A stretch of DNA of 50,834 bases, from contig JANOEP010000041.1 in assembly GCA_031441465.1 (NCBI GenBank), forward strand, positions 1 through 50,834, read 5' to 3'. Shown in pieces: positions 29,815 to 46,324 of the stretch; the first letter of the stretch is position 1; each line of letters begins with the position of its first letter. The stretch comes from a bacterium. GTDB taxonomy: Bacteria; Krumholzibacteriota; Krumholzibacteriia; LZORAL124-64-63. Position numbers and translations under genes: made by a program. The notes under the pieces are model-generated. The model saw only the letters and a list, made by a program, of their open reading frames with translations, was not told the DNA's origin and searched no databases.

Positions 29815-30906
29815 TTACCTGGCGGGTGCAAGCTCGTTGTAGAGGGTGTCGCGCAGGACGGGATCGAGGCCGACGCCGCGGATGAAGGACTCGATCTCGT
29901 CGCGGGTCATGCCGGTGCCGGCGGTGCCGCCGGCGGCCAGGGTGATGCGCTCGTCCGAGATCGTGCCGTCGAGGTCGTCGGCGCCGCAGCGCAGCGCCAG
30001 CTGGGCGACCTCGCGCCCGAGCATGACCCAGTAGGCCTTCACGTGGGGGACGTTGTCCAGCAGCAGGCGCGACAGGGCCACGACCTTGAGCTTCTGGATC
30101 AGCGTAGGACCGGGCAGGTCCGCGAACTTCGTGCCCGCGGGGTGGAAGGCCAGCGGGATGAAGCACTGGAAGCCGCCGGTGCGGTCCTGCTGGTCGCGCA
30201 GCATGAGCAGGTGGTGGACCCAGTGGCGCGGCTCCTCGACGTGGCCGAAGAGCATCGTGCAGTTGGTCTTCAGGCCGGCCTCGTGGCAAAGGGCCGCCAC
30301 TTCGAGCCAGCGCTCGCCCGACATCTTCTTCGAGGCGATCCGGTCGTGGATCTCAGGATGGAAAATCTCGGCGCCGCCGCCGGGGCAGCTGTCCAGGCCG
30401 GCCTCGCGCAGCGCGGCGATGGTCTCGGGCACGGTCAGCTTGCCGATCTTCGCCAGGAAGTCGATCTCGACCATCGTGAAGGCCTTCAGGTGCACGTCGG
30501 GGAACGCCGCTTTCAGCGCGCGCAGGATGTCCAGGTAGACGGGGAACTTCCAGCGCGGGTGCAGGCCGCCCACGATGTGGAACTCGCTGGTGCCGGGGAT
30601 GAAGTCGCGTCGGGCCAGCTCGACGCACTCCTGGGGGCTGTAGCTCCAGGTGCCGGGTGCGTTGGGGTCGTCGGCGTAGGCGCACAGCTCGCAGCCCACG
30701 TAGCAGACGTTGGTCGGGTTGATGTGACGGTTGATGTTGTAGAAGACCTTGCGCCCGTGCTTGCGCTCGCGGACGGTGTGGGCCAGCCAGCCCAGCAGGG
30801 GCAGGTCGTCGCTGGCGGCCAGCAGCAGGCCGTCACGCTCGTCCAGGCGCGAGCCCGCGGCGATCTTGCGCGCGACGGGGGCCAGGGGGTGGGAATCGGG
30901 GATCAT
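29815..30906 (-). CDS. mqnE: Aminofutalosine synthase (radical SAM, CofH/MqnE family)
   Basis: HINPTNVCYVGCELC, HIVGGLHP, PGGGAEIF, FIPLAFHP, HVKAYWVM. Confidence 0.85.
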   Translation of the reverse strand: MIPDSHPLAPVARKIAAGSRLDERDGLLLAASDDLPLLGWLAHTVRERKHGRKVFYNINRHINPTNVCYVGCELCAYADDPNAPGTWSYSPQECVELARRDFIPGTSEFHIVGGLHPRWKFPVYLDILRALKAAFPDVHLKAFTMVEIDFLAKIGKLTVPETIAALREAGLDSCPGGGAEIFHPEIHDRIASKKMSGERWLEVAALCHEAGLKTNCTMLFGHVEEPRHWVHHLLMLRDQQDRTGGFQCFIPLAFHPAGTKFADLPGPTLIQKLKVVALSRLLLDNVPHVKAYWVMLGREVAQLALRCGADDLDGTISDERITLAAGGTAGTGMTRDEIESFIRGVGLDPVLRDTLYNELAPAR

Positions 30907-32773: not shown

Positions 32774-35700
32774 ATGACAACCAACAAATTTGCCAAAAGA
32801 AGTGCCTTCGGATCAATCGTGTTTCTTTGTCTGGCCTGCGCCCTGACGCCGGCCCTGGCCGACAACTGGCCCATGTGGCGGAACGGCGCGAACAACGCCG
32901 GCTCGTCGAACGAAAACATCCTCCTGCCGTTGTCCGAGCAGTGGCATTCCACGGCGCCCCTAGTGGAAGAGAACGGCGTGGTCGTCGCCGGCGGCATCGC
33001 CTACATGGCGACCGACGACGGTTGGCTCTTCGCCTTCGATGTGACGACGGGATTCGATGTGCCGGGATACCCCGTCCAGATCGTTCATACCTGGGGTTCG
33101 CCGGCTGTCGATGTCGCCAACGGCCTCATCTACGGTCTGGCGGGCGTCAACCTGTACGCCTTTTTCCTGAACGGCACTCCGGCCTGGACCGCCTCGGTCG
33201 GCTCGGTCGGCAGCAACTACTCCGAGGGGCCGGTCGTCGACGAGGGCTTCGTCTACCTCAAGGCCGGCGGTAATCTGCGGAAGTACAGTGCGGCCGGCGC
33301 GCTGCAGTGGTCGTCGGCGGCGGGCGGCCCGAACACTCAGCCCGCGATCATGGGCGCCCACGTCTACTCGAACTCCGAGACCGGACAGATCCAGAAGTTC
33401 GACAAGGCGACGGGAGTTCAGATCACCACGGGCGGATTCCCCATCAATACCGGCTACGGCGTGACGGCCCTGACCGCTGCCGACGGCAGGCTGTTCCTCA
33501 AGTCCGATGTTCTCTACGCCTACGACGCCGACAACGGCAGCCTGTTGTGGTCGCAGCCCGACGGCGGTTACAGCACCTATTACGGTACCCCGGCCGTGTC
33601 CGGCGCCGTCGTGTACACCTACGGCTGGGATGCGCGGATCTATGCCTTCGACGTGAGCACGGGCGCCACCATGGCGGGCTTCCCCTCCATCGCGCTGAGC
33701 AACCTGAATGACCGGAATTGGAGTTCCCCGGCGGTCGCGGGGAACAAGGTGTTCATCGGCGCCGGCACGTCCCAGATGTTGAAAGTTCTGGGAGCCGCCG
33801 GTTCAGCCGAAGCGGGCCAGGTGCTGGCCGAGTACCTGACCTTCTCCACCGACGCCCAGGGCTTCGACCTCTGCTCGGCCGCCGTTTCCGACGGCTGGGT
33901 CTTCGCCATGCTGGACGGTGGCGGCCTCTACGCCTTCTTCGGCGGGGCCGGAAATCCCCCGTCCGGCGCCTTGGTCATCAACGGCGGAGCCGAATGCACC
34001 CAGTCCCAGGCAGCGACCCTGTCGCTGGACAACAACGGCAATGCGGATGTGGTGGAGATGAGGATCTCCGAGGACCCGTTCTTCTCGGGTGCGCCGTGGA
34101 TCCCCTACATGGCCTCCTCGTCCTGGACCCTGTCGCCGGGATACGGCATGAAAACGGTCTATTCCCAGTTGAGGGACAACGGGGGCCTGCTGTCCAACGT
34201 GTTCACGGATCAGATCGATTACCAGGCGAGCTGCGAGGGCTCGGTGTGCGTCTGGGTCGACTCGGGCCAGATCACCGAGCACGCCACCTCGTACGGCACG
34301 GCCTGGGGCGACTACGACAACGACGGCGACCCGGACCTGCTGGTGGCCAACGACGGGCCCAACCACCTCTACGAGAACGTCAACGGCGTCCTGACGCTGG
34401 TCCCGAACTGGTGCAACGACGACGAGCCGTCGTACAGCGCCGCCTGGGGCGACTACGACAACGACGGCGATCTCGATCTCTACGTGGTCAACGACAGCGT
34501 GGGCAACGCGCTCTACCGCAACGACGCCGGCGCCTTCACCCGCGTCGACGCGGGAGCCGCCGCCGACGGCGGCAGCGGCTACAACGCCGCCTGGGCCGAC
34601 TATGACAACGACGGCGACCTCGACCTCTACGTCTGCAACCGCCACGGCACCAATCACCTCTACCGCAACGACGATGCGGTCTTCGTGAGTGCCGGCGGCG
34701 TCACCGAGGTGAGCGGCACCAGCCGCGGCTGCGCGTTCGCCGACTACGACAACGACGGCGACCAGGACCTCTACGTCAGCCGCGTCGGTGTGAACTATCT
34801 CTTCCGCAACGACAACGGCGTCTTCGTCGATGTCTCCGCAGCGCCCGTGAACGACGCCGGCGACGGCAAGGGCGTGGCCTGGGGCGACTACGACAACGAC
34901 GGCGACCTCGACCTCTACCTGGTCAACACCGGTGGCGCCAACAAGCTCTTCCGGAACGACTTCCCGGGTGGGTTCTTCACCGACGTCACCGACCCCCTGA
35001 CCGGCGATCCGGAGAACGGCCGGGCTTGCGCCTGGACCGACTACAACAACGACGGCTGGCTCGACCTGTTCCTCGCCAACCACACCGGCGGGAACCACCT
35101 GTTCCACAACACGGGCGGAGCCTTCGCCGACAGCACCTGCGGCGCGCTGGCCGCCACCGCCAACCTGTCGACGTGGGGCTGCGCCTTCGCCGACTACGAC
35201 CTCGACGGCGACCAGGATCTGGCCGTGGCGGTCCGGACGTACTCGGAGACGAGCAAGCTCTTCCGCAACGATCTCGAAAGCAGCCTGGCGCGGAGCTGGC
35301 TGCAGGTCGACCTGCGGGGAGTCACCTCCAACCACTTCGGCGTGGGCGCCAGGATCACGGTCGATACCGGCGATCTGACGCTGATGCGTGAGGTGAGCGC
35401 CAGCGGCTCCTACCTGAGCCAGGCGCCTCTGACCGCCAGCTTCGGCCTCGCGGGAGCAACGACCGTGAACATGACCGTGCGCTGGCCCTCGGGCGTCGTC
35501 CAGGAGCTGACCGACGTGCCGGTGAACCGCCGCATCGAGATCGTGGAGCAGGCCGGCTCCACGGGGACGCCGGCGCTGCCGCACTCGCCGCTGCTGGTCG
35601 TTTCCAACTTCCCCAACCCCTTCAACCCGTCCACGACGTTCGAGCTTTCGATCCCGCGTAATTCGAATGTCGATCTGCAGATCGTCGACGCCGGTGGGCG

Positions 35701-35866
35701 CATCGTCCGCCGGTTGCTGACCGGCGAGCCCTTGTCCGCCGGCTTCCACCAGGTCCAGTGGCAGGGTCTGGATGACGCGGGCATGCTCGCGCCGTCCGGC
35801 GTGTATTTCTACCGCTGCCTGGCCGCCGGTGAGACCGTGACGGGCAGGATGTTGTTGCTGAAGTAA
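32774..35866 (+). CDS. Secreted protein: PQQ-like beta-propeller, seven FG-GAP/VCBS repeats, ASPIC/UnbV domain, FlgD-Ig tail
   Basis: DNWPMWR, repeated SPAV/YAFD..TG motifs; 7x A(W/F)xDYxxDGxxDL; WLQVDLRG..SNHFGVGARI; NFPNPFNP...SGVYFYR. Confidence 0.88.
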   Translation: MTTNKFAKRSAFGSIVFLCLACALTPALADNWPMWRNGANNAGSSNENILLPLSEQWHSTAPLVEENGVVVAGGIAYMATDDGWLFAFDVTTGFDVPGYPVQIVHTWGSPAVDVANGLIYGLAGVNLYAFFLNGTPAWTASVGSVGSNYSEGPVVDEGFVYLKAGGNLRKYSAAGALQWSSAAGGPNTQPAIMGAHVYSNSETGQIQKFDKATGVQITTGGFPINTGYGVTALTAADGRLFLKSDVLYAYDADNGSLLWSQPDGGYSTYYGTPAVSGAVVYTYGWDARIYAFDVSTGATMAGFPSIALSNLNDRNWSSPAVAGNKVFIGAGTSQMLKVLGAAGSAEAGQVLAEYLTFSTDAQGFDLCSAAVSDGWVFAMLDGGGLYAFFGGAGNPPSGALVINGGAECTQSQAATLSLDNNGNADVVEMRISEDPFFSGAPWIPYMASSSWTLSPGYGMKTVYSQLRDNGGLLSNVFTDQIDYQASCEGSVCVWVDSGQITEHATSYGTAWGDYDNDGDPDLLVANDGPNHLYENVNGVLTLVPNWCNDDEPSYSAAWGDYDNDGDLDLYVVNDSVGNALYRNDAGAFTRVDAGAAADGGSGYNAAWADYDNDGDLDLYVCNRHGTNHLYRNDDAVFVSAGGVTEVSGTSRGCAFADYDNDGDQDLYVSRVGVNYLFRNDNGVFVDVSAAPVNDAGDGKGVAWGDYDNDGDLDLYLVNTGGANKLFRNDFPGGFFTDVTDPLTGDPENGRACAWTDYNNDGWLDLFLANHTGGNHLFHNTGGAFADSTCGALAATANLSTWGCAFADYDLDGDQDLAVAVRTYSETSKLFRNDLESSLARSWLQVDLRGVTSNHFGVGARITVDTGDLTLMREVSASGSYLSQAPLTASFGLAGATTVNMTVRWPSGVVQELTDVPVNRRIEIVEQAGSTGTPALPHSPLLVVSNFPNPFNPSTTFELSIPRNSNVDLQIVDAGGRIVRRLLTGEPLSAGFHQVQWQGLDDAGMLAPSGVYFYRCLAAGETVTGRMLLLK

Positions 35867-35939: not shown

Positions 35940-36088
35940 CTTGGTTATTCGAACTGCGATTCCTGCTATGACGGGCCTGTCGCGCGCTGTACCTTCTCGC
36001 CGAGGCTGCCGTGATGGGGCTGCCATGCCCGCGCACTGCTGAACAACAACTGCATTGTCCTCGCCCTGCCGCGACGAATGGAGACGCC

Positions 36089-36754
36089 ATGTGCGCCGCG
36101 CTGAAACCCGCCGCCGAATTCCCGTTCCCGATGGGACTGCCGCCCGCCCTGGTGTCCCAGTTGCGCGAACACGGCCGGACGGCGCGCCTCGCCGCCGGCG
36201 ACATGTACCTTCGCGAACACGCGGCGGTCGAGACCTTCGCCCTGGTACGCAGCGGCGCCTTGCGGGTGTTCAAGACGGGCGAGAGCGGGCGCGAGATCAC
36301 GCTGTACGGCGTGGGACCCGGCGAATGCTGCACGGTCAACGTGCTGTGCCTGCTTTCGGGCCGTCCCAGCCCGGCCGCCGCCACCGCGGAGACCGACGTC
36401 GAAGCGATCGTCTACCCGCGCAGCCTCTTCCTGCGCTGGATGGCCGATCACGAGGCGATGCGGGCCTTTGTCTTCGGCATTCTGGCCGACAAGGTCGGCG
36501 ACATGATGACCCTGATCGAGGAAGTGGCGTTCCAGCGCATGGACCGCCGCCTCGCCGCCTACCTCGTCGAACGCGGAGGCGCCGCCGGTTCCGTGTTGGA
36601 ATGCACCCACGAGACGGTGGCCGCCGACCTCGGCACCGCCCGCGAAGTGGTCAGCCGTCTGCTGAAGACCTTCGAACAGCGCGGCCTGGTGTCGCTCGCA
36701 CGCGGGCGCATCCGGATCGTGGATCCAGCCGCCCTGCAACACGCCACTCTATAA
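36089..36754 (+). CDS. Crp/Fnr-family transcriptional regulator
   Basis: SGREITLY.V.PGECC, VAFQRMDRRLA, THETVAADLGTAREVVSRLLK. Confidence 0.92.
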   Translation: MCAALKPAAEFPFPMGLPPALVSQLREHGRTARLAAGDMYLREHAAVETFALVRSGALRVFKTGESGREITLYGVGPGECCTVNVLCLLSGRPSPAAATAETDVEAIVYPRSLFLRWMADHEAMRAFVFGILADKVGDMMTLIEEVAFQRMDRRLAAYLVERGGAAGSVLECTHETVAADLGTAREVVSRLLKTFEQRGLVSLARGRIRIVDPAALQHATL

Positions 36755-38017: not shown

Positions 38018-38620
38018 ATGTCCGGACGCGAGATCATCCTCACCGCCGTCCTGATGATCGGCGGCGCCGCGGTCGCCCACGCCGCGGACTACGTGCTGAC
38101 CCCCGGCGCCGGATCCACCGTGAGCTTCGAGTCGAAAGCGCCCGTGGAATCCTTCCGCGGTGAGACGCACACCATCAACGGTCGCTTCAGCGCGGATCTC
38201 GACAGCCTGGCCGGCGAGGTTGCGGTGACGGTGGAAGTGGACCTCGCTTCCCTCGACACCGGGATCGGTCTGCGCAACAAGCACATGCGCGAGAACCACC
38301 TCGAGACCGACCGCTTCCCGCAGGCCGTGTTCCGCGGCGCGCGCATCCTCGAGGCCGCGCCGGCCTCGCTGCTCCCGGGCGGCGCCTGCGAGATCACCCT
38401 GGTGGGCGAGCTCGACCTGCATGGCGTCGTGAAGCCCTTGACCCTCCGCGCCAAGCTGGCCCTGTCGCTGGATGGCGTGCTGACGGTCACGGCCGACTTC
38501 CCCGTGCGCCTGTCCGACCACGCGATCCCGCGCCCCGGCTTCCTGACGATGAAGCTGGCGGACGAGCAGCGCGTCAGCCTGCACCTGGAGGCGCGGCCCG
38601 CCGCCGAGACCGCACCATGA
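38018..38620 (+). CDS. YceI-family periplasmic lipid/isoprenoid-binding protein
   Basis: STVSFESKAP, SLDTGIGLRNKHM, FPQAVF, GELDLHGVVKP. Confidence 0.9.
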   Translation: MSGREIILTAVLMIGGAAVAHAADYVLTPGAGSTVSFESKAPVESFRGETHTINGRFSADLDSLAGEVAVTVEVDLASLDTGIGLRNKHMRENHLETDRFPQAVFRGARILEAAPASLLPGGACEITLVGELDLHGVVKPLTLRAKLALSLDGVLTVTADFPVRLSDHAIPRPGFLTMKLADEQRVSLHLEARPAAETAP

Positions 38621-39030
38621 CCATCCGTCGTCCAAGCGCGATCATCGCCGCCGCCGGCCTGGCGCTGCTCGTCGGGTGCGCGGACGAGGGTGCCGATCCC
38701 ATCTCCCCCGGCGGCAGCGGCGACATCTACTACGCCCGCGACATCCAGCCGCTGTGGGACCGGGACTGCACGGGTTGCCATGTCGCGGGCGGCGAGGCAG
38801 GGCTCGACCTGAGCGCCGGGCACAGCCATGCCGACCTGGTGGGCGTGCCGGCCGCCGGGTACGCGGCGGATCGCGTAGCGGCCGGTGATCCCGCTGCGTC
38901 GGTGCTGTACGGGAAGCTGACCGACACGGGTCAATTCGGCGGCCCGATGCCGGACGGGGGGCCCGCCTTGAGCACGGCCGATCTGGAGCTCGTGCGCCGC
39001 TGGATCGCCGACGGCGCGCGCGACGACTAG
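38617..39030 (+). CDS. Monoheme c-type cytochrome lipoprotein (planctomycete cytochrome c-like domain)
   Basis: Lipobox LVGC; DIQPLW..CTGCH...GLDL...MP...WIADGA. Confidence 0.82.
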   Translation: MTIRRPSAIIAAAGLALLVGCADEGADPISPGGSGDIYYARDIQPLWDRDCTGCHVAGGEAGLDLSAGHSHADLVGVPAAGYAADRVAAGDPAASVLYGKLTDTGQFGGPMPDGGPALSTADLELVRRWIADGARDD

Positions 39031-39055
39031 CCGGCAGGGACGACCTCCATCACGC

Positions 39056-39922
39056 TCACGATGTGAACGCGCCGCCCGCCCACGCCAACACCTTCACGAA
39101 CGCCGCCGCCGCCAATCCGGCCACGAACAGGCAACGACCCGCCCGCCACCACGCGCGGATCCTCCGGACGCGGAGCGGCGCCTCCTGCGGGAGCGCGCGC
39201 GACAGCGACGGCACGCCCAGCGCATCGCACAGCAGCCAATAGGCGTCGGTGCGCGCGAAGGGCTGCGCGTTCCAGGCGACCGCGGTCACGATCGCGCCGC
39301 CGGCCCACAGCAGATCCGGCCGGTGCCACCACCGCCCCGCGCAGAGCAGCAGCCCTCCCAGCGGCAGTTGCACGGCGACGCCGGCGACGTCCACCCGCAG
39401 GCGGTCGCGCGTCGGCAGGAGCGCCGCCTCGGTCACGTCGCACCACAACACCGGCACCACCCACAGCAGACCGGCGCCGACGGCGCCCGCGCGGCCGCCG
39501 CCCCGGTGCAGGGCCGCCGCGTGCCCCAGTTCGTGCCCCAGGGCGACCAGCACGACGACCGTCGCGGCGAGCAGCGCCTGCGGCCAGCCGAGCGGAGCGG
39601 CGCGCCCCCCGCGGTCGGGCAACATCGCCGCCAGGACGCAGAGCAGCAGGCCGGCGGCCGCGGACGAGATCAGCGCCGGCCACCCGGTCGCCGGAGCCAG
39701 GCCGCCGGCCAGCGCCTGCACGATGCGCGCGGGCAGCAGCGTCGCGCGCAGCCGGGAGCGTCGCGGGCGCGGCGCGGCGTCGAGCAGGGCGCCGAGGTGG
39801 TCGGGGTCGCCGCCATCGCGCGCACGCCGCGCCAGATCCGCGGGCAGCGTGTAGCGGCGCCCGCCGCGGCGCAGGAGCCAACGCCCGTCGGGCAGCGCTT
39901 CGAATTCTGGAGCGGCGCTCAC
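39056..39922 (-). CDS. M50-family membrane zinc peptidase, YydH-like
   Basis: HELGH; G.GLLWVVPVLWCDVT...RLRVDVAG; NAQPFARTDAYWLLCD; GTGA overlap with the upstream gene. Confidence 0.8.
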   Translation of the reverse strand: MSAAPEFEALPDGRWLLRRGGRRYTLPADLARRARDGGDPDHLGALLDAAPRPRRSRLRATLLPARIVQALAGGLAPATGWPALISSAAAGLLLCVLAAMLPDRGGRAAPLGWPQALLAATVVVLVALGHELGHAAALHRGGGRAGAVGAGLLWVVPVLWCDVTEAALLPTRDRLRVDVAGVAVQLPLGGLLLCAGRWWHRPDLLWAGGAIVTAVAWNAQPFARTDAYWLLCDALGVPSLSRALPQEAPLRVRRIRAWWRAGRCLFVAGLAAAAFVKVLAWAGGAFTS

Positions 39923-41028
39923 CCCGCCGCGACCAGATCGGCCAGCCCGATCGTCGCGAGGCGCCGGGCGTGGCCCGCCGTCCAGCGCCGGCCGCAGAGG
40001 GCGCGCAGTTCGGTCAGGGTCGGCGTCGTGGCCCGCAACAGGTCGAGCGCCGCGTCGCGCAAACCCTCGGCGGCGTAGAACGCCTCTCCCTGAGGATCGG
40101 CGAGGATGTCCGGTTCCCAAACCTCCACGCCCGGTCGCAGCGCGAGCCGCACGAGGTCCGGCCCGTGCGCGAGGGCGTCAAGGAACAAGGCCTCGCGCCG
40201 ACGCAGCTCCTGCGGATCGACCGCGAGCCGATCGTGCGCGAAGCACGCGCTCGCGGCGCCCAGCATCCCCCAGGCCGACCACTGCTCGGGCGAGCGGCGC
40301 ACTTCGGCGAAGAGCCAGTCGTACAGCCGGGTCGTGATCGTCTCCGGATCGGCGTCCGCCGGCCACGGCGCCGGCGCGCCGGCCTCCCAGAGCAGCAACC
40401 CGTCCGGCCGCCAGCGCACGGTCAGGGCGTGCACGGGGCACTTCGCGTGGCCGAGCAGCCGCCCCAACCCGGTGCGGACGCGCAGGTCGCGGCCCGGCAA
40501 CCTGTACGTCAGGCCGCGGTCGCGCGTGGCCGCCATGCCGCCCTCGCCGCTGTTGCCGTCCAGGAACACCAGCACCGGGCGCCCCGCCCGCAGGCAGCGC
40601 AGCAGGCGGCCCGCGAACGCCGGCCGGTCCGTCACGAGCCACTCGGGCTCCCCGGTCAAGCCCAGCGCCCGGCGCTGCCGGTCGGCGTCGGCGCGCAGGC
40701 GGTCGTGGGCTGCGCGGTCCAGCAGCACCACCGGCGACAGGCCGAGATCCAGGTACAGGCCGGGGATCAGCGAGTACGGGCCGAGGTGCAGCCCGAGCAC
40801 CAGGCCGCGGTGCAGCTCGCGATGGGAGGACAGGAACGAACGGGCCTCGGCGCGCAGTCGGCGGTGGTCCCCCGAACCATCGCGCAGCACCCGGCGCGCG
40901 TGCTCGTCGCAAGTGCGCCGGCCGGATTCCAGGGCGAGCAGGGTGGCGGCGCCGGCTCCCGGCTCGAGGGCCTGGAGGTTCCAGAGATCCCAGCGGCGGC
41001 GCGGCGACGGGCTGTGCGCGAGCGGCAT
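39919..41028 (-). CDS. LpxL/LPLAT-superfamily acyltransferase-like protein with an extra C-terminal domain
   Basis: LVLGLHLGPY, LRCLRAGRPVLVFLDG, RVRTGLGRL...CPV, EVRRSPEQW.W; GGAGG RBS. Confidence 0.72.
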   Translation of the reverse strand: MPLAHSPSPRRRWDLWNLQALEPGAGAATLLALESGRRTCDEHARRVLRDGSGDHRRLRAEARSFLSSHRELHRGLVLGLHLGPYSLIPGLYLDLGLSPVVLLDRAAHDRLRADADRQRRALGLTGEPEWLVTDRPAFAGRLLRCLRAGRPVLVFLDGNSGEGGMAATRDRGLTYRLPGRDLRVRTGLGRLLGHAKCPVHALTVRWRPDGLLLWEAGAPAPWPADADPETITTRLYDWLFAEVRRSPEQWSAWGMLGAASACFAHDRLAVDPQELRRREALFLDALAHGPDLVRLALRPGVEVWEPDILADPQGEAFYAAEGLRDAALDLLRATTPTLTELRALCGRRWTAGHARRLATIGLADLVAAG

Positions 41029-41057
41029 GGTTCGTCCTCCGGGGCCGGAACCGGGTC

Positions 41058-41090
41058 GGCCCGTCCGTCGCCGGCCGCGGCGGACGGGCC
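41058..41090 (-). terminator. GC-rich stem-loop between the peptide gene and the acyltransferase gene (attenuator or mRNA stabiliser)
   Basis: ggcccgtccgtcgc-cggcc-gcggcggacgggcc. Confidence 0.55.
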
Positions 41091-41126
41091 CGTGTCAGCG
41101 GTGGCCGGAACTCCGGCGACCGGGGC

Positions 41127-41318
41127 TCAGGGCCCCCCGATGGCGTCGTCGACGGCTTCGGGGTACTTCTCCAGCTTGCACTGGCAGAAGTTGTTGCAGC
41201 AGCCGCCGTCGCCCACGTCGTCGCCGAGCAGGGGGCTGGTCTCGAGGCGTTCCTCGAGTTCCTCGATCCCGAGCCGGGCGAGCGCCGTCGGGGCGTCACG
41301 GTTCTTCGTTTCGGTCAT
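41127..41318 (-). CDS. 63-aa putative RiPP precursor: MTETKNRDAPTALARLGIEELEERLETSPLLGDDVGDGGCCNNFCQCKLEKYPEAVDDAIGGP
   Basis: Perfect Shine-Dalgarno AAGGAGGTGA just before ATG; typical GC3 codon usage; leader-like acidic helix followed by a Cys-rich segment. Confidence 0.75.
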   Translation of the reverse strand: MTETKNRDAPTALARLGIEELEERLETSPLLGDDVGDGGCCNNFCQCKLEKYPEAVDDAIGGP

Positions 41319-41374
41319 CGTCACCTCCTTCGTGGTCACGCATCGTTCTGTCGGATCGCGACGACCGGCCCGGG

Positions 41375-41390
41375 GCAAGCGCGGCACCAA
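41375..41390 (-). promoter_or_regulatory. Possible sigma54 promoter for the peptide operon
   Basis: Minus strand ttGGtgccgcgcTTGC, GG-N10-GC spacing, about 57 nt upstream of ATG 41318. Confidence 0.4.
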
Positions 41391-41645
41391 CTCAACGTGC
41401 AGCCGAGGATCGGTCGCAGGTGGCGGCGAGGACCGGAATCGGGATCCCCGCGCCGAGCGAAGGCCCTCGCGGGACGACTGCGGCAGCGGACACGACGGCC
41501 CGGCCTCGTCAACGAAGGGAGACGTGGTTCCCGTCGGCGCGGGATTCCGGGCCGGTCGACGACCGGACGGCGGGTGACGCCCGTGTCGGGGGCTGCTATA
41601 TTGCGACCGCCCGCCTCCGGAAGTCCGTCCTCGAGGAGAACCCGC

Positions 41646-42752
41646 GTGCGCCTGCACCGACATCTCGGCCTGATGTACGGCATCCTCGTGGCGCTGATCG
41701 TCGTGATCGGGGCGTGGTGGGTCTACTACCTGACCCGCGAGGGCCACCATTACGAGAGCTACCAGCTCCAGCGCTACCGCACCGACCAGATGCACGCGGT
41801 CTACATCCTCGAGACGGTGCCCGAGGCGCGGGACGACCCGTCCACGATGCTGGGCCGCGCCTTCCCGCACCTCCTCTTCCAGAAGACCGACAAGGGTTGG
41901 GAGGTGGGCATCGACCCGGCGGCGGTCGCCGACGTCCAGAAGGAGGCGGCGCGGCGCCGGCGCATGTTCATGACCGAGGGCGTGGTGTTCCTGCTGCTGC
42001 TGGCCGCGGGCACGACCATCCTGACCCTGGCCTCGCGGCGGGAGCGCGACTTCAAGCGGGCGCGCGAGCTGTTCCTGGCCGGAGCGACGCACGAGTTCAA
42101 GACGCCGCTGGCGAGCATCCGCCTGTACACCGAGACCCTGCAGCGGCCCGACCTGCCGCCGGACGCCGGCCTGCGCATCCGCGGCGCGATGCTCCAGGAC
42201 GTCGAGCGGCTCGAGGCGATGATGGAGCAGGTGCTGTCGGTGAGCCGCGACGAGGATCACCTGCGCGGCATGCGCGAGACGATCGACCTCGCGGACGTCA
42301 CCCGCGACGTGCTGGAGACCATGGGCGCGTTCCTCGTGGATCGCGGCGCCCGTCTGGAGGTCGACGTGCCCGAGGGCCACCTCGTGGTCGGCGACCGCCA
42401 GGCGCTGCGCGTGGCGGTGCGCAACCTCGTCCACAACGCGGTCCTCTACAGCCCGCCGCCGGCGCAGGTCTCCGTGACGCTGTACCGGGACGGCAACCGG
42501 CACCGCCTGACCGTGCGCGACCGCGGGCCGGGCATCCCCCGCCGCGAACAGAAGCGCGTCTTCGACAGCTTCTACCGGGCCGAGACCGGCGCCGGCTCCC
42601 TGAACGAACGGCCGCGCGGCTCGGGGCTCGGCCTGTACCTGGTCCAGCGCAACCTCGAGAGCCTGGGCGGCCGCGTGGAACTGGAGAGCGAGGAGGGGCG
42701 CGGGGCGGCCTTCACCCTGGTGCTGCCCGTCTTCGAGGAGGAATCGCGATGA
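41646..42752 (+). CDS. Membrane sensor histidine kinase
   Basis: Two TM helices; ATHEFKTPLASI H-box; NLVHNAVLY, DRGPGI, GSGLGL; GAGGAG RBS. Confidence 0.92.
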   Translation: MRLHRHLGLMYGILVALIVVIGAWWVYYLTREGHHYESYQLQRYRTDQMHAVYILETVPEARDDPSTMLGRAFPHLLFQKTDKGWEVGIDPAAVADVQKEAARRRRMFMTEGVVFLLLLAAGTTILTLASRRERDFKRARELFLAGATHEFKTPLASIRLYTETLQRPDLPPDAGLRIRGAMLQDVERLEAMMEQVLSVSRDEDHLRGMRETIDLADVTRDVLETMGAFLVDRGARLEVDVPEGHLVVGDRQALRVAVRNLVHNAVLYSPPPAQVSVTLYRDGNRHRLTVRDRGPGIPRREQKRVFDSFYRAETGAGSLNERPRGSGLGLYLVQRNLESLGGRVELESEEGRGAAFTLVLPVFEEESR

Positions 42753-43438
42753 AACGGCGCATCCTGGTGGTGGAGGACGACGAGCACCTGGCCGACGGCA
42801 TGCGGCTGAACCTGGAGCTGGAGGGCTACGAGCCGGTCGTGGCCGTGTCGGCGGAGGAGGGGCTGAACTACTGGAAGCGCGGCGGCGTGGACCTCGTGCT
42901 GCTGGACGTGATGCTGCCCGGCATGGACGGCTTCGCGTTCTGCAGGAAGATCCGCGAGGAGGGCGACCGCGTGCCGGTCCTGTTCCTGACCGCGCGCGGC
43001 CGCGACGACGACCGCGTCCGCGGCCTGGAGATGGGCGGCGACGACTACATCACCAAGCCGTTCAACCTGAGGGAGCTGCTGGCCCGCATCAAGGGCATCT
43101 TCCGCCGCGAGGAGTGGCGCCGCGAGACCACGGCGCCGGACACGCTGGAGATCGGCGACTCGGTCGTCGACCTGCGATCGCTGACCGTCACCAACCCCCG
43201 CGGCGTCCACGCGTTGAAGGACAAGGAAGCCATGATCCTGCGCGTGCTCGCCGAGAAGGACGGCGAGCCGGTGGCGCGCCGCACGCTCCTGGACCGCATC
43301 TGGGGCTACGACGCCTACCCGACCACACGCACGGTCGACAATTTCATCCTGAACCTGCGCAAGATCATCGAGACGGATCCCGGCAGCCCGGCGCACATCC
43401 TCACCGTGCACGGCACGGGCTACCGCCTGGCGCGCTGA
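42749..43438 (+). CDS. OmpR-family response regulator
   Basis: ILVVEDD, LLDVMLPGMDG, DDYITKPF, TRTVDNFI, TVHGTGYR. Confidence 0.95.
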   Translation: MKRRILVVEDDEHLADGMRLNLELEGYEPVVAVSAEEGLNYWKRGGVDLVLLDVMLPGMDGFAFCRKIREEGDRVPVLFLTARGRDDDRVRGLEMGGDDYITKPFNLRELLARIKGIFRREEWRRETTAPDTLEIGDSVVDLRSLTVTNPRGVHALKDKEAMILRVLAEKDGEPVARRTLLDRIWGYDAYPTTRTVDNFILNLRKIIETDPGSPAHILTVHGTGYRLAR

Positions 43439-43454
43439 CCTCCGGCCGGACCCT

Positions 43455-45164
43455 TCAGCGGACCAGGGCCAGCCGCCGGACCACGATCGCCTCATCTCCC
43501 GCGAGACGCAGCAGGTACGTCCCGCTCGGCGCCTCCCGGCCGTCGGCGGTCCGACCGTCCCAGCGCAACACGTGCTCACCGGCGGCGGCGGGTCCGTCGG
43601 CGAGCGTCGCGATCCTGCGGCCGCGCAGGTCGTGCACCGTCGCGATCAGGAATTGGGCGCGTGCGAGTCTCACCGTGGCCGCCGTCGAGGGATTGCAGGG
43701 ATTCGGCTCGAGACGGGTCAGCTCGAGGCCGGTGGAAACGGACGCGGGGCCGGCCCGGGCGGGACCGTACCAACCGGATGTCCCGGCACCCAATCCCTCG
43801 AGCCAGTAGTCGGCCGTCGCCGCCGGCGGGTCGACGTCCACCCACCCCGGCGCGGAATCGCACAGCAGCGGCGCCGCGGTCAACCGCAACCGTCCGCCGC
43901 CCGGCGTCTCGCGCCAGACGTGGAGGCTGCCGACCTCCTCGCACGCGCGCACCAGCCATTCGAGGCGCACGACCGCACCCGCGCGCGTCGCCGTGAATTC
44001 GTCCAGGACGAGCGGCGTGGTCGTGTCGGGGATCAGCCCGCCCACGATCTTCTCGGCCGCCGGGTTGGCCGAGGTGAGGATGGCGTCCAGGGCGAACCAT
44101 CCGTCGTCGGCGCCACCCCAACCGTAGTTGATGTGGATCAGCGGGATCCCGTCGATTTCCTGCCAGCCGTCGCAGACCATGGTGTGGATGGTGGAGGCGT
44201 AGAGCAGAGGCAGGCCGGCGTCGAGATCGGCGCGGATCGTGTCGAACCAGGTCTGGTCGCTCAGGCGGAAGCGCGACGTCTCGCGCGCCGTCGCGGCGTA
44301 GCGGAATTTCTGGACCATCGCCAGTCGCGCCGCGGAGAGCGAGGCGCCCGTGCCGCAGAAACTGAAATCGGCGCCGCACGCCAGGGCGGTCTCGAAGCAG
44401 AGTTCGGATACGGCGTCCCGCACCGCCTGCGGGTCGCCGGCGGCGGCGGCATCGGGCATGGCGTCCCAGTCGTAGGGATCGGTGAAGTCGGCCCGCAGCG
44501 TGTCGCCGGGCGACGCGCCCCCGCACCGGGTGTCCCCCGCCCACCAGCGTGCGATCGCACCCCGGCCCCGCGGCGGCCAGCTGTGGTGGCGCATGACCTG
44601 CGCGACGGCCAGGGGCGTGCAACCCACGAAGGTCTGCGCGCCGTCGCCCTGCGGGCAATCGTCGTTGTAGGGAGAGCCCTGCGCCCAGGCGGAGGCGAGC
44701 AGGGGGCTGATGCCCGCGGTCGCGACAGCCGCTTTCGTGCTCAGCGCACGCCAGGCGGGATGCTCGCCGAGTGCCGCGGGTCCGGCGCGCGTCAGCAAGG
44801 AGGTACGATCGGCCAGATCGTCCCTCGCCACCGCCGCCGCGCCGCCCGTCGCCTCCGGATCGAACACGCCGCGCTCCGACCAGGCCTTCACGGGCGCCAA
44901 CTCGCGCCGCGCGGGCACCAGGATCCAGCCCTGCGGGGCCAGACGGACGATCCAGCCGATCGTCGCGCCGTCTCGGTCGAGAGCCGCGACCTCGCCCACG
45001 ACGGCCCCGACGCCGGACGTCGGCGCCGCGTCCCGGCCCGTCACGATCTCCAGCCAGCGGGCCGCGATCGCCCCCGCGTCGTCGCGGGTGACGGGCGCCG
45101 CGGCGTGCGCGGCCGTGCAGATCGCGAACAAGGCCGAGATGCAACATTGCCGGATGCGGATCAT
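43455..45164 (-). CDS. Secreted C10-family (streptopain-like) cysteine protease with propeptide and FlgD-Ig tail
   Basis: WAQGSPYN..CP, VGCTPLAVAQVM, HTMVCDG, HINYGWGG; PNPCNP...SGTYLLRL. Confidence 0.88.
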   Translation of the reverse strand: MIRIRQCCISALFAICTAAHAAAPVTRDDAGAIAARWLEIVTGRDAAPTSGVGAVVGEVAALDRDGATIGWIVRLAPQGWILVPARRELAPVKAWSERGVFDPEATGGAAAVARDDLADRTSLLTRAGPAALGEHPAWRALSTKAAVATAGISPLLASAWAQGSPYNDDCPQGDGAQTFVGCTPLAVAQVMRHHSWPPRGRGAIARWWAGDTRCGGASPGDTLRADFTDPYDWDAMPDAAAAGDPQAVRDAVSELCFETALACGADFSFCGTGASLSAARLAMVQKFRYAATARETSRFRLSDQTWFDTIRADLDAGLPLLYASTIHTMVCDGWQEIDGIPLIHINYGWGGADDGWFALDAILTSANPAAEKIVGGLIPDTTTPLVLDEFTATRAGAVVRLEWLVRACEEVGSLHVWRETPGGGRLRLTAAPLLCDSAPGWVDVDPPAATADYWLEGLGAGTSGWYGPARAGPASVSTGLELTRLEPNPCNPSTAATVRLARAQFLIATVHDLRGRRIATLADGPAAAGEHVLRWDGRTADGREAPSGTYLLRLAGDEAIVVRRLALVR

Positions 45165-45382
45165 GGGCGGCCTCGCGTGGTGTGTTGGCGCGCAACGTCT
45201 TGTCCGGCAACGTGCCGGACACCCGAGCCGCGAATCGTGCGCTGCGGGACTTCCCCCCTTGCAGTCCCCGTACCGGAGCGGCAAGATTTCGGCGGACATG
45301 ACGTCTCCATGACACAAACCACACCCACGGTTCCTAGATTTGGCCGCGGCGATGGAAATCCGGCGAGCGGCGAGGAGGCGAC

Positions 45383-46324
45383 GTGAATCCTGGCGACGGC
45401 ACCGACATCATCCGCATCGGCACCCGCGGCAGCGAGCTGGCCCTGTGGCAGGCCCACCACATCCAGGATCTGCTCGGCGCGCTCGGCACGCAGACCTCCC
45501 TGACGATCATCAAGACGCAGGGCGACCGCATCGACGACGTGCCGCTGTCCCAGCTCGAGGGCAAGGGCTTCTTCACGAAGGAACTCGAGGACGCCCAGCT
45601 CGACGGCCGCGTCGACCTGGCCGTGCACTCGATGAAGGACCTCGCGACCGGGATGCCGGCGGGCCTGACGCTGGCCGCCCTGGTCGGCCGCGAGGACCCG
45701 CGCGAGGCCCTGCTGGTGCGGCCCGCCTGCGTGGACGGGGACCGCCTCGCGGCCGGCGAGCTGCTCCCGCTGCGGGACGGCGCGTGCGTCGGCACCAGCG
45801 CGGCCCGGCGCCAGGCCCAGCTGCGCGACCTGCGCCCCGACCTCGTGATCGCCGACCTGCGCGGCAACGTGCCCACGCGCGTGCGCAAGCTGCGCGACGG
45901 GCAGTACGACGCGATCCTGCTGGCGCGCGCGGGCGTGCTGCGCCTGAAACTCGACCTGGACGATCTCTGCGTGTTGCCGCTGGAGGTGGACGACTTCGTG
46001 CCCGCCCCCGCCCAAGGCATGCTCGCCCTGCAGTGCCGCGACGAACCGCGCCTGCGCGACCTCGTGCACCGCCTGCACTGCGAGCCGGACGGCCGCGCCG
46101 TCGCGGTGGAGCGCGCCCTGCTCGAGCGCCTCGACGGCGGCTGCCAGCTGCCCTTCGGCGTGAACGTGCGCCGGTTCGGCGAGGGGTTCCGGCTGAGCGC
46201 CTTCTGGAGCCCGCGCGACGGCGTCGGCGCGCCGCTGCACCTGCGTCTGGACGGGCCCGACCCCGAGGCCCTGGGCGACGAGGCGCTGCGCCGGATCCGG
46301 GACCGTGAGGGGAAACCGGCATGA
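45383..46324 (+). CDS. hemC: Hydroxymethylbilane synthase
   Basis: IGTRGSELALWQ, KGFFTKELE, AVHSMKD, RGNVPTR, GGCQLP. Confidence 0.95.
   Translation: MNPGDGTDIIRIGTRGSELALWQAHHIQDLLGALGTQTSLTIIKTQGDRIDDVPLSQLEGKGFFTKELEDAQLDGRVDLAVHSMKDLATGMPAGLTLAALVGREDPREALLVRPACVDGDRLAAGELLPLRDGACVGTSAARRQAQLRDLRPDLVIADLRGNVPTRVRKLRDGQYDAILLARAGVLRLKLDLDDLCVLPLEVDDFVPAPAQGMLALQCRDEPRLRDLVHRLHCEPDGRAVAVERALLERLDGGCQLPFGVNVRRFGEGFRLSAFWSPRDGVGAPLHLRLDGPDPEALGDEALRRIRDREGKPA

Follow-up and report, generated by a model that had tools for sequence, protein, structure and literature searches.

Several described classes of peptides that are synthesized ribosomally and modified post-translationally (RiPPs) bear on the locus reported here. 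A study on daptides describes their protease as an intramembrane leader peptidase that depends on a RiPP recognition element (RRE); the RRE is joined at the N-terminus to an intramembrane site-2 protease, which takes off the leader (10.1101/2023.03.08.531785). According to a second source, in which LpxL, lipid A and PlsC do not occur, lipidated RiPPs use N-acyltransferases of the GNAT superfamily (PMC13647313). A third source presents DAG-RiPPs as RiPP-lipoprotein hybrids with a signal peptide that use the host lipoprotein machinery (Lgt/Lsp/Lnt) (PMC13056109). Here we describe a 63-residue peptide gene and its two downstream neighbours in a stretch of 50,834 nucleotides from a bacterium of the Krumholzibacteriota (GenBank assembly GCA_031441465.1, contig JANOEP010000041.1, positions 1 to 50,834 of the forward strand; this whole stretch is hereafter the window). 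The peptide gene opens a compact operon of three genes and is followed there by a gene for a 369-residue acyltransferase homolog, X369, and by a protease gene. It is highly probable that the peptide is a precursor processed by its two neighbours. The fuller account, in which the peptide belongs to an undescribed RiPP-like family, is acylated by X369 and has its leader cut by the protease, is one that we favour at somewhat better than even confidence.

Results

The peptide gene and its relatives

41127-41318, minus strand: precursor peptide gene, 63 aa plus stop (ORF translation, relatives, profile, GC3)
41321-41330, minus strand: Shine-Dalgarno sequence, AAGGAGGTGA (read directly from the sequence)

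The gene was proposed in an earlier reading of the letters alone (the sequence-only reading). As stated there, the peptide appears in the list of open reading frames (ORFs) only as the C-terminal tail of a 458-aa ORF (41127-42503), most of which is antisense to the histidine kinase ORF at 41397-42752. Translated on the minus strand from 41318 to 41127, the product has 63 residues, MTETKNRDAPTALARLGIEELEERLETSPLLGDDVGDGGCCNNFCQCKLEKYPEAVDDAIGGP, and its C-terminus is AIGGP. The upstream sequence reported for the ATG at 41318 was also found, AAGGAGGTGA at 41330 to 41321, 2 bases before the ATG, which is a ribosome-binding site of the GGAGG type. The GC content at third codon positions (GC3) was 0.91 in the coding frame, versus 0.68 and 0.46 in the other two. 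The ratio of non-synonymous to synonymous changes (pN/pS), calculated from few substitutions throughout, was 0.16-0.33 in three comparisons involving the most diverged close ortholog (L003; loci are numbered with L and proteins with P) and 0.33-0.82 in the three closer ortholog comparisons that gave a value. The peptide had no match in Pfam or NCBIfam at E≤0.1, and no second copy was found elsewhere in the window.

When the peptide sequence alone was used as the query against a set of 5.8 billion proteins, a single cluster was obtained, at 90% identity. The product of the downstream gene, X369, retrieved 25 proteins at E≤0.001, and 23 of these were aligned (alignment A1; the fragments P0023 and P0024 were left out). 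Loci were then fetched with A1, using one genome per species; 87 pattern matches were obtained, and the 54 that were confirmed gave 52 distinct loci. It was only once these loci had been fetched that the peptide family became visible. The 52 records are metagenome-assembled genomes (MAGs) labelled Krumholzibacteriia or Krumholzibacteriota, Latescibacterota, 'Fibrobacteraceae' or 'bacterium'. By pattern search, a small ORF with the leader motif, on the same strand and ending about 150 nt or less upstream of the X369 homolog, was found in 49 of the 52 loci. A variant of the motif, seen by eye in L015, brings the number of loci with a peptide gene to 50; in L023, which is not among these 50, the contig end cuts the peptide region. 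Nearly all family peptides have a GGAGG-like site before the start. A profile built from 46 of the 52 peptides (A2; the near-duplicates L002, L033, L036, L044, L045 and L051 were left out) matched 132 protein clusters at E≤0.01 among 1666 candidates. No Pfam domain was present in the 120 matches listed, and the names on the listed matches were 'hypothetical protein' and one uninformative MGnify code. The peptide family is sampled here only in uncultured bacteria of the Krumholzibacteriota/Latescibacterota type.

The 63-aa ORF is a genuine gene, because it has a ribosome-binding site and frame-specific GC3, and because peptide genes occur in 50 of the 52 loci and the profile reaches 132 clusters. 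One could have taken it for an ORF that is open by chance in DNA that is rich in GC and lies antisense to the kinase region, as high-GC genomes yield many long spurious ORFs and the 458-aa ORF is mostly one. The comparative data refute this explanation, to which we give practically no credence: the ribosome-binding sites are conserved along with the peptide genes, and a promoter-like element, described below, precedes them.

Two loci differed from the usual arrangement. In L028 (4205-4663), a single X369 homolog is preceded by two precursor genes in tandem, whose leaders are the same and whose cores are CCGGKC and CIICCYHHKC. L018, from the same MAG as L002, is a second X369/protease pair, apparently truncated or degraded, in which no peptide gene was found by pattern; P0024 (202 aa) is an annotated fragment of the X369 copy in L018.

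Leader and core of the peptide

41226-41318, minus strand: leader region, residues 1-31, with the motif L13-x2-L16-G-I-x-E-L-E-E-R24-L-E26-x-S-P-L-L (column entropy)
41130-41225, minus strand: putative core, residues 32-63, with an acidic Gly/Asp spacer, C40, C41, C45, C47 and K48, and an acidic tail (column entropy)

The sequence-only reading had described a leader/core architecture with an acidic N-terminal half and a cysteine-rich C-terminal half, and both halves were as described. Residues 1-31 contain seven Asp or Glu, four Lys or Arg and no Cys, and LEERLETSP is present at residues 21-29. The C-terminal half has a GG, then CC-x3-C-x-C (C40, C41, C45 and C47), K48 and K51, and an acidic tail. 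That reading had also proposed that a conserved leader joined to a variable core would support a RiPP precursor. In a joint alignment of 150 peptides, the mean column entropy was 1.32 bits for residues 11-31 and 2.37 bits for residues 32-63, which is the pattern proposed. The two outcomes named there as contrary, namely absence of homologs and uniform conservation along the whole length, are excluded by the 132 clusters and by the unevenness of the conservation. Among the 150 peptides, R24 and E26 are present in 100%, and L13 and L16 in 99%. Beyond the leader, C45 is the sole near-invariant position, at 98%; the three apparent exceptions are alignment slips, and these peptides do have a Cys. 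We infer that the boundary between leader and core falls at residue 31/32.

At least six core classes occur with one common leader. The window peptide belongs to the class CCxxFCxC[KRE]. The other classes are CC[STV]CK[IML]P with a Pro/Gly-rich tail, CCCxCVCK, CxCxCxCD, NCC[HN]DKC[SN]GN, and TPKSY[VI]C[TN]IN, which has a single Cys. The C-termini are varied across the family. When the cysteines after the leader were counted in 147 peptides, 38 peptides had one, 3 had two, 74 had three, 27 had four and 5 had five. The core motif stands about 23 residues from the leader motif; this distance has been described as fixed, and from E26 to the conserved Cys it measured 16-27 residues (median 23 in the 147 peptides), with a spacer of free sequence. 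A Lys lies within 5 residues of the conserved Cys in 130 of the 147. In a tree calculated for 49 X369 proteins, the core classes tracked the enzyme clades, changing label 7 times where shuffling gave a mean of 22. This agreement mostly reflects common descent.

The three-gene unit

39919-41028, minus strand: X369, a 369-aa acyltransferase homolog predicted to have the LpxM/PatA fold, of the lysophospholipid acyltransferase (LPLAT) type (AlphaFold2 (AF2)/Foldseek, remote relatives, profile, ESM)
39056-39922, minus strand: 288-aa site-2-type intramembrane HExxH metalloprotease, predicted (NCBIfam, motifs, AF2/Foldseek)

An X369 homolog is present in all 52 loci, since X369 was the query. A protease homolog follows directly after it in 42 of them. 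Of the remaining 10, eight end within 400 nt of X369, and two (L041 and L043) are without a downstream protease. In the window, the GTG start of the protease gene overlaps the X369 stop codon in the sequence GTGA, an overlap by which the protease is predicted to be translationally coupled to X369. The genes that flank the unit differ by clade: a kinase/regulator pair is found in 13 loci, and DUF2797, Smr, SDR and GroES-like genes are found elsewhere. As the flanks are not conserved across the family, the conserved unit is the peptide gene together with those for X369 and the protease. DUF2797, Smr, SDR and GroES-like proteins were considered as parts of the system and rejected, being absent from the window's clade and having the look of ordinary synteny.

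It may be noted that in L041 (5731-9274) the place of the protease is taken by genes for a FabH-like ketosynthase and an ABC transporter, and that the gene of an RND pump precedes.

X369, a predicted acyltransferase-fold protein

39922-40173, minus strand: C-terminal domain of X369, residues 286-369, RRE-like or winged-helix-like (AF2 topology)

The AF2 model of X369, calculated from A1, had a mean confidence (pLDDT) of 86 and a predicted template modelling (TM) score (pTM) of 0.74. When the model was submitted to Foldseek, all 14 PDB matches at E≤0.001 were LpxM or PatA. The top match was LpxM of Acinetobacter baumannii (5knk, E=5.4e-9), and PatA of Mycobacterium smegmatis (5oce and 5f2z) matched with E of about 1e-8 and a TM score of 0.63-0.67 normalised to the target. 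Remote relatives led to the same fold. The X369 family profile, searched against 1.84 billion representatives, yielded 757 relatives at E≤0.001, of which 242 reached E≤1e-10. Of 40 relatives scanned among the 150 listed, 26 matched PF03279 at E≤0.001 and 23 reached its gathering score; within the X369 family, 17 of 23 members touched PF03279 at E≤1 (best E 0.0041). H81 (in LHLGPY), D157, G158, N159, G161, R185, G187 and W253 were invariant from X369 out to remote relatives, and the PF03279-positive relatives sharing these residues were only 16-25% identical. A wider profile, A3, reached PatA (E=6e-9), and H81 was aligned with the His of PatA PHSGNWD. The ESM-Atlas features placed X369 at 0.96 to PF03279-bearing clusters. 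No GNAT match was found for X369. From these models and profiles, X369 is predicted to have the LpxM/PatA fold, and it is likely to be a fatty-acyl-attaching enzyme, with acyl transfer as its putative reaction. In an aside, the sequence-only reading had pointed to possible acylation sites in the peptide, and that aside gains indirect support because the neighbouring X369 has this predicted fold.

Beyond a linker of low confidence, residues 293-367 of X369 were modelled by AF2 with a pLDDT of 87-96 as four strands, three helices and one strand. In the model, this C-terminal domain resembles the general shape of a PqqD-type recognition element.

The protease

39773-39922, minus strand: N-terminal cytoplasmic domain of the protease, residues 1-50, possible truncated RRE (motif, AF2)

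The product of the third gene matched the NCBIfam model daptide_HExxH (NF041824) with E=1.8e-22 and 80 bits, against a cut-off of 300 and over model positions 128-334 only. It also matched the YydH/LiaK model (E=3.8e-5). Within its family, daptide_HExxH was matched by all 24 members and YydH/LiaK by 20 of the 24 (best E=1.5e-11), while Pfam M50 touched 12 of the 24 below threshold. H130, E131 and H134 (HExGH), P221 and D226 were invariant in the 24 sequences, and G227 was conserved in at least 90%. The HExxH motif and the downstream P..DG Asp ligand of a site-2 protease were thus both present in the 24 sequences. The AF2 model had a pLDDT of 88.9, and its top Foldseek match was the site-2 protease of M. 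jannaschii (3b4r; probability 1.00, TM 0.48 to the target) at the modest E-value of 0.047; SpoIVFB (8vjl) was also found, with a probability of 0.98. Judged from these matches, the third gene is homologous to those of RiPP leader peptidases.

The first 50 residues of the protease carry the conserved motif hPxGxWLLxxGxRxYxVPxxLGRxL, and AF2 modelled residues 6-49 as three strands and two helices. From this model, the segment may be a truncated RRE.

Fusions and fatty-acyl links among remote relatives

At least four relatives of X369 (P0184, P0220, P0242 and P0260; 689-836 aa) consist of an N-terminal daptide-type protease and a C-terminal LpxL/PatA-type acyltransferase. The protease halves matched with E=1.7e-31 to 8.7e-21. 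In P0242, a weak PqqD match was observed at residues 51-89, the place equivalent to the N-terminal domain of the protease. In P0175, the acyltransferase is fused to a fragment of a fatty-acyl-AMP ligase. P0159 and P0160 each have two acyltransferase domains.

Plasmids were searched with two of the remote relatives: fused P0184 gave a match through its protease half only, and P0171 gave one remote match. On a plasmid of Chondrinema litorale (L053; NZ_CP111044.1, 600-10630), a remote X369-like protein of 390 aa, annotated as hypothetical, carries the signatures YHLGSYRS and YLDGNTGVGG. Its gene stands in a row with those of an adenylate-forming enzyme, a phosphopantetheinyl transferase, FabZ, a ketosynthase and a ketoreductase, with a lantibiotic dehydratase gene divergent, and directly before it lies an UpxY antiterminator gene. 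From its gene content, L053 is possibly a cluster for a lipid-peptide hybrid, here in a bacterium that has been cultured. This evidence is circumstantial, because the relatives are distant (27% identity over half the query).

With this, one can weigh the suggestion that the peptide undergoes no modification, being either a small folded Cys-rich protein or a bacteriocin, and that its neighbours act on other substrates. Four cysteines and an acidic tail could bind a metal or form two disulfides, and nothing shows that the peptide is modified. Against this, conservation lies in the Cys-free N-terminal half and collapses in the C-terminal half, the opposite of what a folded Cys-knot would show; the three genes stay together while their flanks change; and the fusions tie protease and acyltransferase to each other. 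We regard such an unmodified protein as very unlikely.

Promoter-like element and adjacent kinase/regulator pair

41375-41388, minus strand: GG-N8-TTGC element, GGTGCCGCGCTTGC, 70 nt upstream of the peptide start (pattern count)
41673-43438, plus strand: PhoR-like histidine kinase (probable ATG 41673, ends 42752) and OmpR-type response regulator (42749-43438) (domain matches)

In 47 of 50 peptide genes, a GG-N8-TTGC element precedes the start by 54-93 nt; the background was 337 in 15152 70-nt windows of the same loci (2.2%). When compared with the sigma-54 consensus, which has -24/-12 spacing, the element is probably a promoter of the sigma-54 type. The signature GAFTGA of enhancer-binding proteins was not found in the window. 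Between 38900 and 41700, no intrinsic-terminator-like site was found, and the single sigma-70-like site precedes the kinase, on the plus strand. An attenuator hairpin between the peptide gene and X369 was considered and rejected, as the fold of 41020-41135 was no better than those of shuffled sequences (z = -1.13; 31 of 200 equal). Rfam gave no match at E≤0.1 over 38500-43500, and the PADLOC models of anti-phage defence matched neither the peptide nor X369 nor the protease.

The kinase/regulator pair is adjacent and divergent only in the window's clade, in 13 of the 52 loci (L001-L012 and L052), and its membership in the peptide system is uncertain. The kinase and peptide genes share an intergenic region of about 350 nt, in which a conserved AATATA/TATATT box was also seen. 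This arrangement, with a PhoR-like kinase and an OmpR-type regulator directly upstream of the peptide gene, brings up the idea that the peptide is an autoinducer sensed by the pair, like lantibiotic or Agr-type peptides. The idea concerns the role of the product and not its chemistry; the modification would then serve signalling rather than antibiosis or a membrane function. Other clades, however, keep the three-gene core without an adjacent kinase/regulator pair, and no exporter is encoded nearby. Moreover, sigma-54 promoters need an AAA+ enhancer-binding protein and not an OmpR-type regulator, whereas the conserved promoter element is sigma-54-like and the adjacent regulator is of the OmpR type. 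An autoinducer role thus seems to us quite unlikely.

Other genes in the window

A peptidase C10 (streptopain-family) protein is encoded at 43455-45317 on the minus strand, and a large FG-GAP/ASPIC protein at 32774-35866 on the plus strand. Both end in a FlgD Ig-like domain, possibly a common secretion or sorting tail, and the C10 gene shows synteny in several loci from the clade of the window. The ordinary housekeeping neighbours include hemC-hemD-hemB (45383-48032, plus strand), a gene for an MqnC/CofH-like radical SAM protein (29815-30906, minus strand) and one for a Crp-family regulator (36011-36754, plus strand). None of these housekeeping genes is linked to the operon in other loci.

Discussion

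Proposed pathway and its weighing

The three genes suggest a pathway in four steps. First, the conserved leader, LxxLGIxELEERLExSPLL, would dock on the recognition domain of X369, of the protease, or of both. X369 would next move a fatty acyl group from acyl-acyl carrier protein (acyl-ACP) or acyl-coenzyme A (acyl-CoA) onto the core. The acylated peptide would then partition into the membrane, where the intramembrane protease would remove the leader and leave a small Cys-rich lipopeptide. The acyl acceptor would most likely be the thiol of the near-invariant Cys, because this is the only feature common to all core classes, with the neighbouring Lys as the alternative. The multi-Cys clusters presumably resemble eukaryotic S-palmitoylation sites. 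We infer the acyl transfer itself, the donor, the acceptor, the order of the steps, the cleavage site and the role of the product.

A number of observations weigh against acylation by X369 followed by leader removal. Some concern X369 as an enzyme. Its own Pfam scores are below threshold, at 11.9 bits for PF03279 (cut-off 22.3; E=0.13) and 13.5 bits for PF01553 (cut-off 23; E=0.065), and the A1 profile found nothing significant among the PDB sequences (best E 0.65). The HX4(D/E) motif lacks its acid: at position +5 after H81, the X369 family and the relatives nearest to it have Ser, Thr, Arg or others, and never Asp or Glu. Others concern leader recognition. The nearest named ESM clusters for residues 286-369 of X369 are MftB chaperones, at 0.78-0.80, which can be taken as a lead only; no PqqD or MftB match was found by Pfam in members of the X369 or the protease family; and an hhalign comparison of the two families, made with regard to the putative recognition domains, gave no match (probability 0.2%). 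Still others concern the operon and the peptide. No gene for an acyl carrier protein, acyl ligase, exporter or immunity protein lies beside the operon in the window. The clade with the single-Cys KxYxC core, which is the deepest of X369, is without a downstream protease in L041 and L043, each of which has 6 kb of sequence beyond X369. A Lys beside the Cys is not universal, and no acceptor residue can be named from the sequence alone. The word RiPP is used here on the basis of the genes.

A further reading is that X369 has lost its acyltransferase activity and instead binds the leader, as a scaffold or chaperone that serves the protease, or carries out some other reaction on the Cys motif. What proteolysis releases would in that case be a Cys-rich peptide without an acyl group, disulfide-bonded or with a bound metal. 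The acid of HX4(D/E) is absent throughout the family, the operon has no acyl-donor genes, and the core is Cys-rich, with at least three cysteines after the leader in 106 of 147 peptides. Yet an enzyme without activity would not be expected to keep H81, D157-G-N159, G161, R185 and G187 invariant out to PF03279-positive relatives of 16-25% identity. PatA, a relative whose structure is solved and whose fold is the same, has its charge-relay acid outside the HX4D motif. In X369, catalysis would require another acid, for which D157 is our guess. As to the product, 38 of the 147 peptides have a single Cys, so what all have in common can be neither an intrapeptide disulfide nor a multi-Cys metal site. 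We consider an inactive X369 unlikely, and an acylating X369 remains the reading that we prefer. Its most specific form, in which the Cys cluster is S-fatty-acylated by an LpxM/PatA-type enzyme with its own leader-recognition domain and represents a new RiPP class, is put forward tentatively and is open to considerable doubt.

Implications

In the full-text literature searched, which excludes most subscription journals, no description was found of the peptide family (an absence that is not proof) or of an LpxL-type acyltransferase in a RiPP pathway. The combination of a precursor, an acyltransferase and a membrane protease was likewise found in none of the literature on ribosomal peptide natural products that was searched. 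To our knowledge, no dedicated enzymatic S-fatty-acylation of a bacterial ribosomal peptide has been reported, and none was met in the literature searches, which were not aimed at S-acylation. For the Krumholzibacteriota, the literature found consisted of genome-mining surveys only, and no characterised natural product from the phylum was met. From its genes, we judge the system to be a candidate new RiPP class from Krumholzibacteriota-like uncultured bacteria, and rate it as one in which the enzyme family and the precursor family would both be new and the logic would be that of RiPPs.

Chemistry is what defines a RiPP class. A leader-guided acyltransferase of the LpxM/PatA type, if true, would add a new enzyme family and possibly a new linkage, thioester or amide, on the Cys/Lys motif. 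That an acyltransferase is paired with an intramembrane protease suggests the principle 'lipidate, then cleave in the membrane', and the protease-acyltransferase fusions suggest that this principle reaches beyond the present phylum. If S-acylation is indeed the reaction, lipidation would hand the substrate to the site-2 protease, and the 757 relatives of X369, fusions included, would mark a widespread unrecognised family of pathways. There is also a lesson for gene calling, as the raw ORF list shows this real gene only at the end of a long, mostly antisense frame; public gene callers had predicted relatives of the peptide, as hypothetical proteins only.

Comparison with known systems

Like the daptide systems, the locus has a short precursor whose leader is acidic and conserved. 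By NCBIfam, the third gene comes closest to the daptide protease, and the N-terminal domain of its product stands where MpaP has its RRE. In contrast, the protease scores far below the NF041824 cut-off and its partner here is an acyltransferase. The daptide precursor ends in Thr, which becomes a dimethyl-propanediamine terminus, whereas the window peptide does not. Genes for MpaB (DUF-RRE), MpaC (dehydrogenase-type oxidative decarboxylase), MpaD (aminotransferase) and MpaM (methyltransferase) were not found by Pfam or NCBIfam among the operon genes and scanned neighbours. A daptide identity was therefore rejected, for want of a C-terminal Thr and of MpaB/C/D/M genes and with the protease below the cut-off.

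The YydH/LiaK systems also employ a membrane HExxH protease for the maturation of a small modified peptide. Epipeptide clusters, however, rely on a radical SAM epimerase, and none is adjacent here; the sole radical SAM gene seen is the MqnC/CofH-like one, more than 10 kb from the operon. An epipeptide identity was rejected as there is no radical SAM partner. A SCIFF/ranthipeptide identity was also rejected, since no precursor model matched and the operon has no radical SAM gene.

With the GNAT lipo-RiPPs (selidamides, lipolanthines, goadvionins and lipoavitides), the system would share a leader-guided enzyme that installs a fatty acyl group, if the acyl transfer proposed above holds. It differs from them in the predicted LPLAT fold of the enzyme and in the conserved core residue, which is Cys and not Lys, Orn or the N-terminus. 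Since X369 has this fold and no GNAT match, a GNAT-type lipo-RiPP was rejected. In DAG-RiPPs, as would be the case here, Cys-dependent lipidation tethers a ribosomal peptide to the membrane; the present precursor, unlike those, has its own enzyme and protease. A DAG-RiPP identity was rejected as well, for the N-terminus, judged from its sequence, is acidic and hydrophilic without a hydrophobic signal segment, and the first Cys is residue 40.

The best structural matches of X369 are LpxM and PatA, of the LPLAT fold, with which it has the motif His in common, and the DGN...TR-x-G block that comes after this His sits at the place of a second acyltransferase motif in relatives. LpxM and PatA acylate sugar hydroxyls of glycolipids. 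X369 differs from them in being without the +5 acid, in its Gly-rich insertion (DGNxGxGG) and in some 85 additional residues that form a C-terminal domain. Unlike LpxM and PatA, X369 is encoded beside a peptide and a predicted leader peptidase.

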